Below are positions 1 to 47,321 of a stretch of 64,000 bases of DNA, in pieces. Source of the stretch: Sumerlaeia bacterium. GTDB taxonomy: Bacteria > Sumerlaeota > Sumerlaeia > SLMS01 > JAHLLQ01. The DNA lies in contig JAVJSW010000001.1 in the NCBI GenBank assembly GCA_040219255.1, positions 64,001 to 128,000 on the forward strand. Reading direction: 5' to 3'. Within the stretch, counting starts at the first letter, position 1; every line of letters starts with the position of its first letter. A model generated the notes under the pieces. It saw nothing but the letters and a program-made list of their open reading frames with translations. It was not told the DNA's origin and made no database searches. The translations under genes were made by a program, and so were the position numbers.

Positions 1-3000
1 CGATCAGCGGCAGATAAACCTGATCCAGCAGCTTGTTGCGCACGAAGCTGGACAAGATGCGGGGCTTGAATTCTTCGAGCCGCAGTTGCTCGCGGAAGCG
101 CTCGGCGCTGCGTTTCTTCGCCTCCTGGAACGTGCGGAACATCGGCCCCACGGTGCGGTCGTAGTGGGCAAGGCGGCTCATGAATTCCGGATAGCTGAGC
201 CCATAGCGGCCCTCCGCGATGCGGCTGTGCGAACCCAGCATGCCCTCTAATTCCCGCGTGATCGAAGCCGACAGCACGCGCCGCTTCTCGAACGACCCGG
301 TGAAGCAAAGCACCGCCGCTTCATCCAGGTACGGCCGCAGCGTTTCGGCCTCCTTCGCCTTCTCCAGATACCCCGCCAGCCATGCCCGCACCAGCGCGAA
401 AGTCCCCACCGGATCGGCCTCCGCACCGGCCAACGTTTCCTCGAAGGCTTTGGCGCCATTGGCCTTTTTCAGGTGTGCGGTGAAGCCCTCGAAGAGCTTG
501 GCGGCCTCCGGCGCGATCACGAAATCTTCGCCTGCCGTCAGCTCGAAATACAGATACTCAGCGCCTTCGCGGGCGGCCTCGGCGGGAAAAAGGGCCGTCG
601 TCTCGGCGAACGCCACGAGCTGTTCCTCGAGCGGCGCCAGGAACCGCCCGCGGTCCAGCCGGTGCGGCAGCACCCGCAGAATCGCCCGCACACCCCGGAG
701 TTGCTGGGCGAGGCGCCCCTTCAGTTCCCCATCGCCAAAGCGCCGGAACCACATCTGCGCGCACGCCCGCGAAGCCGTCGGGTAGCGCAGCAGGCCAACC
801 GCCTGATTCATCTGCGCCAGCGCCCGCACGATCTTCGCCGCGTCACCGTCGTGGACGCCCTTGACGTAGCCCTCGGCGTAGCGCGGGCTCGCGAACTTCT
901 GCACCGCGTCCAGCAGCGCCGCGTCCTCCATCACCGCCAATTCGGCCACCGGCGGTTGCGCGCCCGATTCGCTGGCCTTCAGGAACTGATAAGCCAGATA
1001 TTCGGCGCGATAGACATTATTGTTTTCGGACACGATTTCCTGCGCCCAAACCGCCCGGGTCTCGTCCAATTCCGGATCGGACGCCATTTCATAGAAGTTC
1101 GTTCCGGTGATGTGGTAATAGATCTTGCCATCGCGAATGACCGTCGAAAGATCCAAAGGTTGCGTGTTGACGCTAAATTTCTGTTTTCCGAACTGGATGA
1201 CATCGCCACCGTCGGCGTACAATTCCAGTTTGTCCTTCAGTTGACGAAGGGCGTCTTCCTTGATGGTTTTCAACCGGCTTTGAATTTCGTCGGATTTGAC
1301 CGAGTCGCCCAGGTCCCGCAGTTTCTCGATCGTGTCGCGCACTTTATCAATCATCAAATCGGTGGCGAAGTAACTGTTGATTTCGTCCACCGACTTCATG
1401 CCGCGAGCGCGATTTTCGACGCCCTTCAGGATGCGGTCCGCCGCCCCCTGGAGCGTGACCGCCCGCTTCTGGCGGGCTTCCATCAGCGACGTCTTCTTGC
1501 TCTCGAACGCCTGATAAATCTCTTCCCGCTTGGTGGAAAGCTCCGTCACGAATTCATCGTAATCGGCAAACTTGCCTTCCAGCTCCTCGACCTGGACGAG
1601 TAACTTCGTCAGGTACTCGTCGCACTTCTCCGGTGTGTCGCAAAGGTCCATGAAGTTCACGACGCTCTGGCTGACGAGCTTGATTTGCGATCCGAACTCC
1701 GCGACCGCTTCCGCGCTGCCCAATTCCTTTTTCTTGTTTGTCAAGGCGGCGCGGACCTGATTGACCTTCTGGAAAATCGCGGAAATCGCATCGATGATTT
1801 GGGTCGTCTTCGTCGAATCGTCGATTTTCAAATTCCCGACGATTTCGATCAACAATTCGAGCTGCCCGCTGATTTCGTGAATCGCCTCTTCATGCTCGCG
1901 AGCTTCCGTGACTTTCGTCAATTTCGGAATCGCCGCCTTCTCCTCCGCGACTTTCTCTTCGTAGATATCGAGGGCGTTTGGCTGGAGCAAGAACTCCACC
2001 GTTTTCTCTGAGACCCCGTCGCTCTGCTCGGCGACCTGCTTCTCCAGCGCTTCCACGTGCGGCAAATCCACATAGCGGAGGTCCTTGAGCGAAATCACCT
2101 CGCCGCGCAGCAAACGCAATTCATTCAGCCCCGCCACATAGCCATCCACCGCGGGCCATTGCCGGCCGCGCAGGCTCCCAAGAATCTCTTCCGCTTTCTT
2201 TGTCGTTTCGCGGACTTTCGTTTCCGTCTGCTTGCGAAGCGCCGTGACTTTTTCGAACTCGTCGATGGCCGTGCCGGCGCTCCTGCGGATTTGCTCCAGC
2301 ACTTCCTTTAAATTGAAGAGCTCGCCCTCGCCCACCCAAAAATACGAGTCCGTGATATCCGTGGTGTTCTTCACCAAGTCCAGATACAGACTCTCGTAAG
2401 GCGTTTCGCGGCGGCACAGCTTGATGACTTCCCAGCATTCCGCCATCGCTCGCACAACTTCTTTGTTTCCAATTTTGTAGAGGCGCGAATCGCCCTTTTG
2501 AGGAAGCTCGAAATTCGGCCCCACATACGGGGTCTGCCACACCTGCACGGGATGGTGCTTTTGCGGCTCGATCTGATCGCCGAAGTACACCATTTCTCCG
2601 TTTTCGAAAATCGAATAACCCTGGCCGACAATCGGTGTCGCGACCCGCTGCTCGATCATGTTGTACGACAACAGAATATACACGCCGCTCGCCCTGTTGT
2701 GAAACACGAACAGGTGATCTTCGCCGTTGGCCGATGGCACCCGCCGCTCGAACAGCATTTCCTTCAGACCATGCTCGAACTGCTTGTGCTCGCCATTGAC
2801 CAGGTAATAACCACTGCTAAAGATAATTCCGTGATCGTCCGGCAGAAGAACGCAAGAATGCTGGATCGCATCCACGCGCCGCGCTTCCTTGATCTTGTCG
2901 TTATAGATGATATACCGATGATCTTTCTCCTGGTAAGGCTTGATCTTCAGCAATATCAGCGGCCCCACCACGGCGTAGGAAATCTCGGCGTCGTCCAGCA

Positions 3001-3757
3001 CCTGGTCGGCGTTTTCCACCGGTTCCCGATAAATACCCTCACCCGACTCCGTATTGTCTTCCACCTTGATGGTCAAATCCCCGCCAACGGTTTCCACGAA
3101 AACTCGGTCTTCGATGGAAATGTGCGGGTGTTTCCCTTCGCGGTGCAGGTCGCGGTGCGTACGCTTCCAGGTGAACTCGTGCTGCGGCGGGTACTTGAAC
3201 TCGTGATCGCTGCGGTTGTCCAGGTACGTCAACCCGTCCCCCTGAATCGCCCACTTGAAGGTCTTGATGTCCGTCGGCCGCTTGCCCACCTGGAAAACCA
3301 TGAACAGGTGCGGCCCGATAATGGCGAATCGCGAGAACGTCGTTTCCTTGTAATACTTGTAGAGGTTGTTGAAATCCTCCTCGAACCGCTTGTCATCGAT
3401 CAGGCTCAAATCCGCCGTGTGAAACTGGCGCTCCCGGTATTCGTAAACGGCGAAAACGTCCTTGAGCTCCGTCGTGCTCTTCAGACCGAAATGGACATTG
3501 TAGCCAAAGATAAACCGGGTTCCCACCGGCACCATATCGCGGGCGATGCAGTTATGCTCCGTCGTGATCCGCGCCCGGTCCAGGACCTGCAAATCGATCG
3601 AGCCAAAGGTGTCCTTCCGCACCGCGTTCAGCTTGTTGACGCGGTCCTGCAAATCCTTCGCCTGCGCCGCGAGACGATTGCGGATGATCTCGTAGGTGCC
3701 GCCTTCGAGCTGTGCTTGATCCTGTTGCGCCTGCGATTCTTTTTCAACGTCCGCCAT
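1..3757 (-). CDS. Giant putative ATPase of the 'DNA repair ATPase' (DUF3686-like) family; 3' end lies beyond the left edge of the window
   Basis: Missing from the ORF track because it has no stop in the window. ATG at 3757 opens MADVEKESQAQQDQAQLEGGTYEIIRNRL..., with HPHISIEDRVFVETVGGDLTIKVEDNT and VQVWQTPY, a long coiled-coil middle, and ...FKPRILSSFVRNKLLDQVYLPLI at the edge. No P-loop is visible yet. It follows flotillin and NfeD-like genes. Confidence 0.88.
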   Translation of the reverse strand, partial: MADVEKESQAQQDQAQLEGGTYEIIRNRLAAQAKDLQDRVNKLNAVRKDTFGSIDLQVLDRARITTEHNCIARDMVPVGTRFIFGYNVHFGLKSTTELKDVFAVYEYRERQFHTADLSLIDDKRFEEDFNNLYKYYKETTFSRFAIIGPHLFMVFQVGKRPTDIKTFKWAIQGDGLTYLDNRSDHEFKYPPQHEFTWKRTHRDLHREGKHPHISIEDRVFVETVGGDLTIKVEDNTESGEGIYREPVENADQVLDDAEISYAVVGPLILLKIKPYQEKDHRYIIYNDKIKEARRVDAIQHSCVLLPDDHGIIFSSGYYLVNGEHKQFEHGLKEMLFERRVPSANGEDHLFVFHNRASGVYILLSYNMIEQRVATPIVGQGYSIFENGEMVYFGDQIEPQKHHPVQVWQTPYVGPNFELPQKGDSRLYKIGNKEVVRAMAECWEVIKLCRRETPYESLYLDLVKNTTDITDSYFWVGEGELFNLKEVLEQIRRSAGTAIDEFEKVTALRKQTETKVRETTKKAEEILGSLRGRQWPAVDGYVAGLNELRLLRGEVISLKDLRYVDLPHVEALEKQVAEQSDGVSEKTVEFLLQPNALDIYEEKVAEEKAAIPKLTKVTEAREHEEAIHEISGQLELLIEIVGNLKIDDSTKTTQIIDAISAIFQKVNQVRAALTNKKKELGSAEAVAEFGSQIKLVSQSVVNFMDLCDTPEKCDEYLTKLLVQVEELEGKFADYDEFVTELSTKREEIYQAFESKKTSLMEARQKRAVTLQGAADRILKGVENRARGMKSVDEINSYFATDLMIDKVRDTIEKLRDLGDSVKSDEIQSRLKTIKEDALRQLKDKLELYADGGDVIQFGKQKFSVNTQPLDLSTVIRDGKIYYHITGTNFYEMASDPELDETRAVWAQEIVSENNNVYRAEYLAYQFLKASESGAQPPVAELAVMEDAALLDAVQKFASPRYAEGYVKGVHDGDAAKIVRALAQMNQAVGLLRYPTASRACAQMWFRRFGDGELKGRLAQQLRGVRAILRVLPHRLDRGRFLAPLEEQLVAFAETTALFPAEAAREGAEYLYFELTAGEDFVIAPEAAKLFEGFTAHLKKANGAKAFEETLAGAEADPVGTFALVRAWLAGYLEKAKEAETLRPYLDEAAVLCFTGSFEKRRVLSASITRELEGMLGSHSRIAEGRYGLSYPEFMSRLAHYDRTVGPMFRTFQEAKKRSAERFREQLRLEEFKPRILSSFVRNKLLDQVYLPLI

Positions 3758-44861: not shown

Positions 44862-45584
44862 CTACTGAACCTGCATCATGCTCTTGCGCAGTTGGCGGAT
44901 GTTTTCGCGCACGCCACCTTTGCCATAGACCGACGAGCCGGCCACCAGGATGTCGGCTCCGGCGGCGACCGCCAGGTGCGCCGTGGAGGGATCGATGCCG
45001 CCATCGACCTGGAGCAGATAGTTCAGCCCGATCTCCTCGCGCAGCAGCACCAGCTCGCGTACCTTGTTCAACGTGTGCGGGATCAGTCTCTGGCCACCGA
45101 AGCCCGGCTCGACGGTCATCACCAGCACCATGTCGGCGTCCGGCAGGCAATCGCGGATGGCGGACACGGGCGTGTCCGGTTTGATGGAAATGCCGGCCTG
45201 CACGCCTGCGGCCTTGATGTCGCGCAGAAGCCGGGGCGACTCGTCTCGGCCCGCCGCTTCCACGTGAAAGGTGATGTGGTTGGCGCCGGCTTCGACGAAC
45301 CGTTCGAAGTAGCGGCGGGGTTCGGAAATCATCAGGTGCACGTCGAAAAACAGATTCGGATCGAGGGGCCGGATGTTGCCGATGACCGCGGGGCCGAAGC
45401 TGATGTTGGGCACGAAATGGCCGTCCATCACGTCGAGATGAAGCCAGCGCACGGAGAGACCCTTGAGGGGCTTGACCGCGTCCTCGAGGCAGGAGAAATC
45501 CGCCGCGAGCAAGGACGGGGCGATGCGCACTCCGGTGCCGCGGCGCGACACCGATCCGTTCCCTTTGGCGGGATCGTTCATCAT
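44862..45584 (-). CDS. rpe: Ribulose-phosphate 3-epimerase
   Basis: IAPSLLAADF, HLDVMDGHFVPN, MTVEPGFGGQ, VDGGI. Confidence 0.96.
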   Translation of the reverse strand: MMNDPAKGNGSVSRRGTGVRIAPSLLAADFSCLEDAVKPLKGLSVRWLHLDVMDGHFVPNISFGPAVIGNIRPLDPNLFFDVHLMISEPRRYFERFVEAGANHITFHVEAAGRDESPRLLRDIKAAGVQAGISIKPDTPVSAIRDCLPDADMVLVMTVEPGFGGQRLIPHTLNKVRELVLLREEIGLNYLLQVDGGIDPSTAHLAVAAGADILVAGSSVYGKGGVRENIRQLRKSMMQVQ

Positions 45585-45841
45585 CTTCACATGGCTCGAA
45601 GAACTGGCCTTACGCGGCACGATACAATAACCTCCCCGCTCCCTCGCTCCTGGCCGGATGAGGGGCGCTGCGTTCGTCGACGCTTGAACGCCCGGCAATG
45701 TGCCCGGACAGCCTCGGAAGTGCAAGGGAAGGATGGGGGATCAGGGTGGTCCTCGCCATCGTGTCTAACCCAAACAACGCGGGGTCTCTCCACAGCGGCC
45801 CCGGCTTTTGCGGAACCGCCGAAAATCTTCCGCCAACCCGT

Positions 45842-46363
45842 CTAATCGGGGACGGAGCATGCCAGCTCCCGGAAAAAGGGCTGGAGAAAATCCCGTCCCT
45901 CCGGGGGCAAGCGGCGATTGACCGACTCCTCGAGGCGCAAGAACGACGCCTGCATGACGCGCAGCTCCTGAAAGCTGCATTGCTGTGTCATAATCTGCTG
46001 AAGCCAGAACAACAGGTTATTGCGGAACAATTCCGGGTTGCCCAGCAACGCACACAAACACAGATGCCGCAGAACCGTGCCGAACCCTTGACCGCAAGGG
46101 CAAGTTCCCTGACACGCCAACTCGCACGACGCCGCCATCGGACATTCGACCTCCTTCTCGATCGCGTCGAGCGACGCGAAGACATGGTCGACGGTCCGGC
46201 AGGCCAGGTCGAGTTCCGGATGATCGCGGCGCAACTCCTCCAGCTCCTCGTGGCTCGGCACCGCGACCTGGGGCGCGAGGCGCAGCAGAAGGCGATTTCG
46301 TTCCTTCGCCACTTCAGCGGAACCGCAAGCCGCTTCCCTCTCGAATTCCGTTAATTCAGACAT
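45842..46363 (-). CDS. Phycobiliprotein-like (globin-fold) protein B, Cys-rich
   Basis: CGQGFGTVLRHLCLCALLGNPELFRNNLLFWL...LQPFF resembles the C-x-R-D-x4-LRY...LL.W helix pattern of phycobiliprotein-like proteins. Confidence 0.65.
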   Translation of the reverse strand: MSELTEFEREAACGSAEVAKERNRLLLRLAPQVAVPSHEELEELRRDHPELDLACRTVDHVFASLDAIEKEVECPMAASCELACQGTCPCGQGFGTVLRHLCLCALLGNPELFRNNLLFWLQQIMTQQCSFQELRVMQASFLRLEESVNRRLPPEGRDFLQPFFRELACSVPD

Positions 46364-46390
46364 TGAGACACGTCCGTTCTAGTGGGCGGA

Positions 46391-46420
46391 AGGAAGACAG
46401 GAAGAGAGGAAGAGAGGAAG
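46391..46420. repeat. 8-bp tandem repeat (AGGAAGAS)
   Basis: aggaagac aggaagag aggaagag aggaag between the two globin-like genes. Confidence 0.6.
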
Positions 46421-46429
46421 GCGGGGCGT

Positions 46430-46933
46430 TCAGTGAGCGAACTCGTTGCGACAAATCACGGCGACCATGTCGTCGAGGTAGGGTTCGATGGCGTTCCTGG
46501 CTTCGGGCGTAAGCCGCGACACGACGAGTTGACGCAGGACGCTGAAGGCCGCCACGACGACCGGATCGAGGCGCGCGAAGCCGGCGGCGTCGAGCACCTG
46601 GCGCATCCAGTAGAGACAGTGGCGCTGAAGCAGCGCGCGGTCGTCCAGGACCATGGTCAGCACAACGGAGCGAAGCAGGCGGGTCATGTCGGCTGCCAAT
46701 GTGTCCTCCGCGTCTGCGCCGAATCGCTCTTCCATTTCCGGATAAACGCGGCAGACCAGATGGGCGGCCTGCCTCGTAATGGCATCGGCCCCGATCAGAA
46801 CGTCAGCGGCAGCCTCGTAAACGGGTTCCCGTTCGGGTTGGAAGGCCCGGAGCGACTCGAGGTCGCCGGGTGCAAGGTCTGGCGCGACATCGCCCAATTG
46901 GCGCAGGTAGGGCAGTAAACACAAGTAGCTCAT
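46430..46933 (-). CDS. Phycobiliprotein-like (globin-fold) protein A
   Basis: GDLESLRAF, ADAITRQAAHLV..YPEM, LAADMTRLLRSV..MVLDD..LL...LYWM, LTPE...PYLD match the phycocyanin/allophycocyanin-like helix pattern. Confidence 0.72.
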   Translation of the reverse strand: MSYLCLLPYLRQLGDVAPDLAPGDLESLRAFQPEREPVYEAAADVLIGADAITRQAAHLVCRVYPEMEERFGADAEDTLAADMTRLLRSVVLTMVLDDRALLQRHCLYWMRQVLDAAGFARLDPVVVAAFSVLRQLVVSRLTPEARNAIEPYLDDMVAVICRNEFAH

Positions 46934-47128
46934 GGAAAGCTTACCTTCTCAACGATCTGGGTGGCCTCGACGGTGCGAGGGCGATCGACCTTCTGAAGGC
47001 AGACCTGAAGAATCCGGGGGTATGGTTTCCCAACGGAATCCCCAAAAAAAATCAAAACCAATTACGAAACCTGAATGAAAAACTCAAGCGGGCACCTCCG
47101 CGGAAGTTCACACTCGGCTCGACCAGCT

Positions 47129-47157
47129 ACTGTCTAGAATTTCGGGATGGTTGTCAA
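47129..47157 (-). promoter_or_regulatory. Candidate promoter for the globin-like pair
   Basis: TTGACA-N17-GACAGT on the - strand; same architecture as upstream of the tRNA pair. Confidence 0.4.
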
Positions 47158-47321
47158 GGTTTCCGTTTTCGCGAAGATTACGCATCATCCGATTCGCCGC
47201 CGGAAATTGAACGATCTCCAGATGAAAATATTTCGCCCCGCAGGTTGTCCCGGCAAAGAGGAACTCTTAATCCCGTAAGCGGCAAGAGGTGGCGAAATCG
47301 TAAGGGGGAAGATCCCGGGGC

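Follow-up and report, generated by a model that had tools for sequence, protein, structure and literature searches.

Paralogs of phycobiliproteins encoded by non-photosynthetic bacteria have been described by Rockwell, Martin and Lagarias (PNAS 2023; PMC10151467), who named them bilin biosynthesis-associated globins (BBAGs). According to the available text of that study, BBAG genes lie in clusters, with 'one or two' globins in each, that also encode pre-PcyA bilin reductases, a heme oxygenase, two V4R proteins and an Fe-S protein; internal duplications are reported, as are pre-1 clusters with remotely located members. No lyase was needed for the representative BBAGs to bind bilins, the C-x-R-D motif is present in some, and the functions of these globins are stated as not known. 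The same source places the origin of phycobiliproteins among the BBAG globins of heterotrophs and derives the slr0144-slr0149-type clusters from pre-PcyA clusters. It also describes the BBAG-2/photoglobin lineage, which lacks C-x-R-D and still binds biliverdin through another Cys motif. The bilin reductases, judging from the available text, are characterised in a 2026 preprint (10.64898/2026.05.08.723791). Here, we describe two tandem genes, A and B (Table 1), in a 64,000-nucleotide stretch of the genome of a Sumerlaeota bacterium (hereafter, the window, that is, the whole stretch of DNA analysed). Their products are, with near certainty, divergent phycobiliprotein-like globins, and this already published family is represented here by a divergent, lineage-specific variant.

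The pair resembles BBAG-1 and BBAG-3 in that A belongs to the same Pfam family and in that the host is a non-photosynthetic bacterium with a heme oxygenase, a bilin reductase of the FDBR family and two V4R proteins. In contrast to those globins, however, A and B sit on another contig than the FDBR/V4R cluster, B is rich in cysteine and is missed by profile search, and an A/B heterodimer is predicted. Homology to phycobiliproteins, by which BBAGs are recognised, was found, whereas another hallmark, location in or beside an FDBR-V4R cluster, was not. By description, the globin of the slr0144-slr0149-type cluster (slr0149) is likewise a phycobiliprotein-like globin accompanied by V4R, but unlike A and B it is cyanobacterial and lies inside its cluster.

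The assignment to the family is most direct for A, which passes the Pfam profile PF00502 (Phycobilisome) with 50.7 bits (E = 2.5e-13; profile positions 14-152 of 155; gathering cut-off, 22.2 bits). Its matches to the NCBIfam equivalogs are weak (ApcA, 16.7 bits with a cut-off of 270; CpeA, 16.6 bits with a cut-off of 225), so that the thresholds for light-harvesting subunits are missed by more than 200 bits. Among PDB sequences, its matches are phycobiliproteins in all but 2 of 17 rows, these two being annexin A8, and the best E-value is 0.0026. B yielded no Pfam match at E-values up to 10 and none in NCBIfam or among PDB sequences. The two proteins are paralogs (BLASTP E = 1e-10; 24% identity across 145 residues), and in searches of individual genomes B matched the PF00502 globins of relatives with E-values of 4e-9 to 3e-4. 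Furthermore, the nearest ESM Atlas clusters of B are PF00502 clusters (score 0.90; 185 of 256 language-model features), a comparison in which our own alignment was not involved; a structure search with the model of B from ESM Atlas itself was uninformative, returning unrelated families only (template-modelling (TM) scores of 0.28-0.41).

We aligned 22 globins with MAFFT (A, B, their sister copies and 18 other globins) and built AlphaFold2 models of A and B on a 22-row alignment. The model of A had a mean per-residue confidence (pLDDT) of 84.6 and a predicted TM-score (pTM) of 0.81, whereas for B these values were 64.6 and 0.58, with 74-83 in the C-terminal half, lower values in the N-terminal half and pLDDT below 50 at residues 76-85, the Cys-rich stretch. 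In Foldseek searches against the PDB, all rows listed for A were phycobiliproteins or fluorescent proteins engineered or designed from one (TM 0.58-0.69), and nearly all rows for B were allophycocyanins or other phycobiliproteins, with two low-probability neuroglobin rows (TMq of about 0.5); the best E-values, 1.5e-3 and 0.10, respectively, are weak, and the ranking is consistent. The VIA aligner, which is independent of Foldseek, also ranked phycobiliproteins and ApcE first for both proteins. The top match of A had Z 14.1 (root-mean-square deviation 4.6, 138 aligned residues), compared with 12.3 for the DosC globin and 10.2 for RsbR-N; the corresponding values for B were 10.5 (4.0, 123 aligned), 8.6 and 6.8, all to be read with the caveat that Z below about 13 is common among helical proteins. 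Thus, the RsbR-N family, considered beforehand as a possible better match, fits both models worse than phycobiliproteins do.

Coverage of the N-terminal helix hairpin separates the candidates further. Six of the eight phycobiliprotein or ApcE matches in the VIA top nine for A begin at model residue 3-9 and cover the hairpin, whereas the alignments of DosC and RsbR-N begin only at residue 28-37. RsbR-N and the globin-coupled sensors thus share with A and B the globin superfold, and would offer a sensor role, but they score lower, leave the hairpin uncovered and gave no Pfam match to either protein. Among the fold matches, photocobilin structures rank in the middle (Z 11.5 with A and 7.4 with B); unlike in the photoglobin system, no B12-binding partner was found among the six neighbouring open reading frames (ORFs) scanned, and the R-G-M-C motif given for photoglobins in the available text of PMC10151467 is not seen in either sequence. 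The closest structural counterpart of both models is the alpha-beta protomer of allophycocyanin and phycocyanin, with a similar predicted interface. The differences from it are that A has no attachment Cys, that both proteins have no Arg at the chromophore site, that identity is 10-20%, and that no lyase or photosystem was found in the host genome. For B, this structural evidence is supportive rather than decisive, because Z-scores below about 13 are common and its model leaned on an alignment of phycobiliprotein-like sequences. B is tied to the family through A, through language-model features and through a weaker model.

At the chromophore site, 12 of the 18 other globins read K-C-x-R-D and six read K-T-A-R-D, the latter belonging to the G003 and G008 lineage (with one identical pair among the six). 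A and its sister copy read T-L-A-A-D, having lost the Cys and the Arg and kept Asp82. B and its sister copy read P-C-G-Q-G, which places Cys90 at the bilin-attachment column and replaces Arg-Asp with Gln92-Gly93. Thus, A and B alone depart from the R-D pair, which all 18 other globins keep: the Arg is missing from A, and both residues are missing from B. These assignments reproduce, with relatives included, the alignment of the site that had been made by hand in the original prediction, which was drawn from the letters of the window and its translated ORFs. Loss of C-x-R-D need not abolish bilin binding, because the BBAG-2/photoglobins bind biliverdin without it.

The cysteine cluster that the original prediction read in B, CPMAASCELACQGTCPC, is present and provides Cys74, Cys80, Cys84, Cys88 and Cys90, spaced C74-x5-C80-x3-C84-x3-C88-x-C90; C102 and C104 follow. 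Altogether, B contains 11 Cys in 173 residues (6.4%), as against 0.6-2.5% in the 20 other globins of the comparison and 0.2-1.2% in six neighbouring proteins of the window. All 11 are retained in the sister copy of B, which is 97% identical.

The co-folding score for A and B was 0.70, as against 0.00 for the best of three controls. Of 80 solved complexes, 58 attain this mark, as do 2 of 110 mismatched pairs, counts that are only roughly valid here given our own shallow alignments. The runs share at least 86% of contacts, with partner pLDDT of at least 80. The predicted interface pairs residues 3-32 of A with 100-123 of B, and 14-51 of B with 89-112 of A, an arrangement of N-terminal hairpin against the central helices of the partner that we take to be the canonical alpha/beta protomer interface of phycobiliproteins. 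Judging from this model, A and B most likely form an alpha/beta-type heterodimer through the N-terminal helix hairpin; the co-folding model is the one line of support for the heterodimer that had been proposed from the sequence. The accompanying proposal of 'complementary' residues contributing to one site fared worse. Each phycobiliprotein subunit has a separate chromophore pocket, and the proposal is unpersuasive because in the predicted dimer, too, each subunit carries its own. We rejected a shared A/B chromophore site, as residues 82 of A and 90 of B lie outside the listed interface residues of the co-fold model.

The host assembly (5.35 Mb, 92% complete; the window lies on contig C1) contained no detectable type-II or type-I reaction centre (PF00124, PF00223), no CpeS or CpeT lyase (PF09367, PF06206) and no phytochrome PHY domain, which at 92% completeness is not proof of absence. 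These negatives agree with the earlier impression of an apparently non-phototrophic host. Equally, the window was correctly described as devoid of heme oxygenase, bilin reductase and V4R genes: matches in the whole genome are confined to contigs C61 and C64. The genome does hold bilin genes, with an FDBR on C61 (83.9 bits) and a heme oxygenase on C64 (59.5 bits), so that this Sumerlaeota bacterium, judging from its gene content, can make bilins.

The C61 cluster (L005, 8835-15199, plus strand) encodes, in order, a V4R protein, a globin, a second V4R protein, a Ser/Thr kinase, a low-complexity ORF, two ParA/MinD-like NTPases and the FDBR. The globin, of 165 aa, has a canonical K-C-Y-R-D site and scores 66.4 bits with PF00502. 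Its position between two V4R genes, together with the passing of PF00502 by A, bears out the view that A and B are phycobiliprotein-like globins of the V4R-associated kind. In comparison with the published BBAG clusters, the one on C61 differs in its Ser/Thr kinase and two ParA/MinD-like NTPases, and in contrast to the published layout of heme oxygenase, Fe-S protein, V4R, BBAG and FDBR, no Fe-S protein was found among the scanned C61 ORFs; none of the scanned ORFs of this cluster, or of the corresponding cluster of the relative G005, matched an Fe-S family, and the unassigned ORFs in both contain no Cys. At the positions of His88 and Asp105 of Synechocystis PcyA, the C61 FDBR has Asn and Glu (HMMER alignment), and among PDB sequences it is matched best by a 15,16-dihydrobiliverdin:ferredoxin oxidoreductase, not by PcyA; because of both features, we did not assign it to pre-1, pre-2 or pre-3. 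The search of the genome yielded a single heme oxygenase gene (L004, 1378-2603). It overlaps with the beginning of a ChuX/HutX-HemS heme-utilisation gene, and its main role may for this reason be in heme acquisition and not in dedicated bilin synthesis.

Among 41 related genomes, PF00502 genes are present in 11 and FDBR genes in 10, and all 10 are within the 11; the PF00502 genome without FDBR (G020) is 85% complete. The association of A and B with bilin genes is at the level of the genome only. Of the relatives, G005 was placed in the same family as the host and G016 in the same order. In G005, the cluster has the same order as on C61, and beyond the FDBR it extends into three PF00502 globins in tandem; extra tandem globins are thus part of the bilin system in this phylum. 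These three (L015 on C80, 6113-7778, minus strand) all read K-C-x-R-D and are followed by a phosphoglycerate kinase gene; the second and third have N-terminal extensions, the Pfam profile covering their C-terminal halves only.

Several relatives also carry long poly-globin ORFs of about 940-980 aa: L017:2804-5692 (plus strand) in G003, L016:6074-8962 (minus strand) in G008, and L018:170-3106 and 787-3600 (both plus strand) in G013, where the overlap of the two frames points to a frameshift or to misassembly. A profile of Sumerlaeota globins matches these ORFs 5-6 times serially (best independent E-value 1.5e-14; weaker repeats 1e-6 to 0.3), whereas Pfam sees one PF00502 domain in each, and they seem to be fusions of degenerate phycobiliprotein-like domains. 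Those of G003 and G008 each adjoin a stand-alone, Cys-less K-T-A-R-D globin. Such fusions are not mentioned in the available text of PMC10151467. In Sumerlaeota, the family has grown through tandem duplication and also, in some of the genera, through fusion.

The distribution of A and B themselves is narrow. Each has one relative among 5.8 billion clustered proteins (96% identical for A and 97% for B), and the two sister copies share one 2.4-kb contig. An exhaustive phmmer search of 1.84 billion representatives with B recovered the 97% identical copy alone, and word-index homologue searches returned one match for B, one for A and nine for an 11-sequence profile. A search of related loci with a pattern of A gave 599 pattern matches and zero relatives, and the pair was not found in other genera. 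Conservation of the pair in relatives, on which the original prediction had counted, is thus confined to one near-identical sister strain.

In a maximum-likelihood tree of the 22 globins, 10 of the 18 inner branches are unsupported, and the branches of A and B measure 3.5 and 5.8 changes per site. Left out of the alignments and the tree were a globin ORF of G015 (L010), the four long multi-globin ORFs, and P0006 and P0003, the latter two being apparent duplicates of the G003 and C61 rows. With unsupported, very long branches and a warning of long-branch attraction, the tree speaks neither for nor against orthology of A or B with the G005 globins. For the same reasons, the pair adds little as an outgroup informative about phycobiliprotein origins, a use that had been envisaged for it: the branches are very long and unplaceable, and the family has already been published for that purpose.

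To compare the pair with that of the sister strain (about 3% apart), we used contigs of metagenome run X1 that cover both ORFs; the amino-acid changes implied by these contigs match those of the database copies without exception. Both ORFs are full length in the two strains, without stop or frameshift. A differs by 10 synonymous and 6 non-synonymous changes, a ratio of non-synonymous to synonymous rates (dN/dS) of 0.19, and is clearly under purifying selection. For B, 2 listed synonymous and 6 non-synonymous changes give a dN/dS of 0.92; by hand arithmetic, this value would fall to about 0.46 if two unlisted contig differences were synonymous and inside the ORF. Five of the 6 replacements in B are scored as similar by BLAST and none is at a Cys; no difference is listed in codons 86-173, and the covering contigs have at most two unlisted ones. 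Selection on B is thus undecided from very few changes, with the frame intact and the Cys residues kept. Because counts are small and divergence is patchy, recombination may blur these ratios. At the 3' end of A, 79 nt (46451-46529) contain 12 single-base differences from the sister strain, common to the X1 and X3 contigs; divergence elsewhere in the locus is much lower, a pattern suggestive of a recombination patch.

On balance, we consider it probable that the A/B heterodimer is an accessory bilin-buffering or sensing module. A and B would be tandem, lineage-specific, fast-evolving BBAG paralogs in a bilin-making Sumerlaeota host and would assemble, like phycobiliprotein subunits, through the N-terminal helix hairpin. 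Because canonical C-x-R-D is lost in both, neither would bind bilin in the standard covalent way. A, with its Asp kept and under purifying selection, would at most hold a bilin non-covalently, whereas B would contribute a thiol-rich pocket that may allow an alternative thioether through Cys90 or a neighbouring Cys, or form a redox- or metal-sensitive site. The pair would then serve the bilin/V4R/kinase system of the genome. We infer the ligand and the physiological role, and the dimer is a model prediction.

Several observations weigh against this buffering or sensing role. The Arg of the chromophore site, lost in both proteins and kept in 18 of 18 others, may signal that no bilin is bound whatsoever. 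The pair, located between rpe and a DUF308 gene on C1, adjoins no bilin gene, and the tree provides no link of A or B to the post-FDBR globins of G005. Conservation of the pair cannot be demonstrated, because each protein has one near-identical relative only, and the listed changes in B reveal no clear purifying selection. The model of B is of low confidence in its N-terminal half and Cys stretch and was built from an alignment of phycobiliprotein-like relatives. Finally, because phycobiliprotein alpha/beta complexes are among solved structures, the co-folding pass, obtained for the A+B heteropair only, may reflect memory of those complexes, that is, likeness rather than binding.

Some of these observations would equally be expected if the pair, or at least B, were a decaying relic of a tandem globin duplication moved from the FDBR cluster, having lost bilin binding and now drifting. 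The dN/dS range of B (0.46-0.92, from 8-10 changes), its orphan status among 1.84 billion representatives, the failure to find the pair in other genera, the branches of 3.5 and 5.8 changes per site, and the disappearance of an otherwise invariant Arg from both proteins, and of the Asp also from B, all point this way. However, both ORFs are unbroken in two strains about 3% apart, the dN/dS of A is 0.19, the replacements in B are mostly similar (5 of 6), touch no Cys and leave codons 86-173 without a listed difference, and both models keep the fold and a confident predicted interface with each other, so that we regard decay as rather unlikely. A different fate for B would be the rebuilding of its bilin pocket into a Cys-ligated site, the dimer then sensing redox state or metals, not bilins. 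Such a metal or Fe-S sensor is suggested by five Cys within 17 residues, with C102 and C104 on the next helix, and by a Cys content far above that of the 20 other globins and fully kept in the sister copy. Furthermore, the C61 and G005 clusters are without an Fe-S family match and their unassigned ORFs are Cys-free, whereas published clusters have a separate Fe-S protein. Yet B matches no metal-binding or Fe-S family in Pfam, NCBIfam or the PDB, the Cys spacing fits no assignable motif, the stretch is modelled as a low-confidence loop, conservation over 3% divergence says little, and Cys-rich stretches also make disulfides or alternative thioether links; we consider this explanation unlikely. 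A bolder combination, which strikes us as distinctly improbable, is that an obligate A/B heterodimer arose in a non-phototroph independently of cyanobacterial phycobiliproteins, with a non-covalent bilin site in A and a pocket in B converted to a multi-Cys metal/Fe-S or multi-thioether site, and acts as a bilin/redox coincidence sensor feeding the V4R/Ser-Thr-kinase system.

Binding of heme, in the manner of globin-coupled sensors, rather than of a linear tetrapyrrole was also considered, given that sensor globins come a close second in structure (DosC, Z 12.3 with A and 8.6 with B) and that the heme oxygenase of the genome lies beside a ChuX/HutX heme-utilisation gene. This appears very unlikely, as membership by sequence is in PF00502 and in no heme-globin family, the phycobiliprotein-type N-terminal hairpin is present and forms the predicted interface, and published BBAGs bind bilins (PMC10151467). 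A role of A and B as light-harvesting antenna subunits, which the fold and the predicted alpha/beta dimer alone would favour, is effectively refuted: the genome, 92% complete, yielded no reaction centre and no CpeS or CpeT lyase, C-x-R-D is lost in both proteins, and the best NCBIfam score is 16.7 against a cut-off of 270. The buffering or sensing module is our preferred reading of the pair.

The two co-oriented ORFs are present where the original prediction had placed them, in the order A then B. The guanine-plus-cytosine content per codon position is coding-like in both (A, 0.73/0.42/0.77; B, 0.66/0.42/0.75). A and B are probably co-transcribed, because the spacer between them contains no terminator-like site; the terminator/promoter scan found nothing within it. 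Over the scanned sequence as a whole, there were 0 promoter-like sites and 2 terminator-like sites, versus 2.6 expected by chance, which is uninformative, and the scan detected no sigma-70-like site in the 388-nt region 5' of A. In the sister strain, this region shows substitutions and two 1-nt indels, as non-coding DNA would. On the coding strand, the A-B spacer is a CT-rich tract with cttcctct-type repeats; the ATG of B is not preceded by a clear Shine-Dalgarno sequence, whereas GAAGG precedes the start of A by 10-14 nt.

Table 1. Features of the A/B locus (positions in the window)
Feature	Position	Strand	Description	Basis
Gene A	46430-46933	minus	167 aa, phycobiliprotein-family globin (BBAG-like), degenerate chromophore motif	ORF, PF00502, AlphaFold2
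Gene B	45842-46363	minus	173 aa, extremely diverged Cys-rich paralog of A	ORF, BLASTP vs A
A-B spacer	46364-46429	minus	66 nt, pyrimidine-rich	sequence read
Intergenic region upstream of A	46934-47321	minus	388 nt	promoter presumed here

On the 3' side of B lies the gene for ribulose-phosphate 3-epimerase (rpe), and on the 5' side of A, beyond the intergenic region, that for the DUF308 membrane protein, a neighbour present in 2 of 11 family genomes, the genome of the window included. Further neighbours encode an aldose epimerase, a pseudopilin and an FHA-Ser/Thr kinase; none is bilin-related. The rpe ORF as listed (44862-45725, minus strand) begins at a TTG 67 codons ahead of the Pfam domain; its true start is probably an internal Met pair near 45587, in which case B and rpe would be about 250 nt apart.

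In the available texts of PMC10151467 and of the 2026 preprint, the terms 'Heterodimer', 'Sumerlae' and 'BRC1' have 0 occurrences. The main text of the former, as available, is without Sumerlaeota, and its Supplementary Information Fig. S11 and Fig. 3B, on BBAG motifs and the contents of the clusters, may hold Cys-less, duplicated or Sumerlaeota BBAGs; a literature search for Sumerlaeota together with phycobiliprotein returned two papers, both unrelated. The gain is modest: earlier work already covers the family and its significance for evolution, and A and B have diverged too far to be an informative outgroup. The present results extend the BBAG system to Sumerlaeota and add a pair that is useful because neither subunit retains the canonical chromophore motif and a Cys-rich pocket has appeared in one of them. 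Such a pair would bear on what these globins do in non-phototrophs, be it binding, buffering or sensing, and, if it indeed heterodimerises, would help to date the alpha/beta protomer architecture. The improbable coincidence-sensor reading, if true, would mean that the alpha/beta architecture of the antenna can arise, or already existed, outside photosynthesis.

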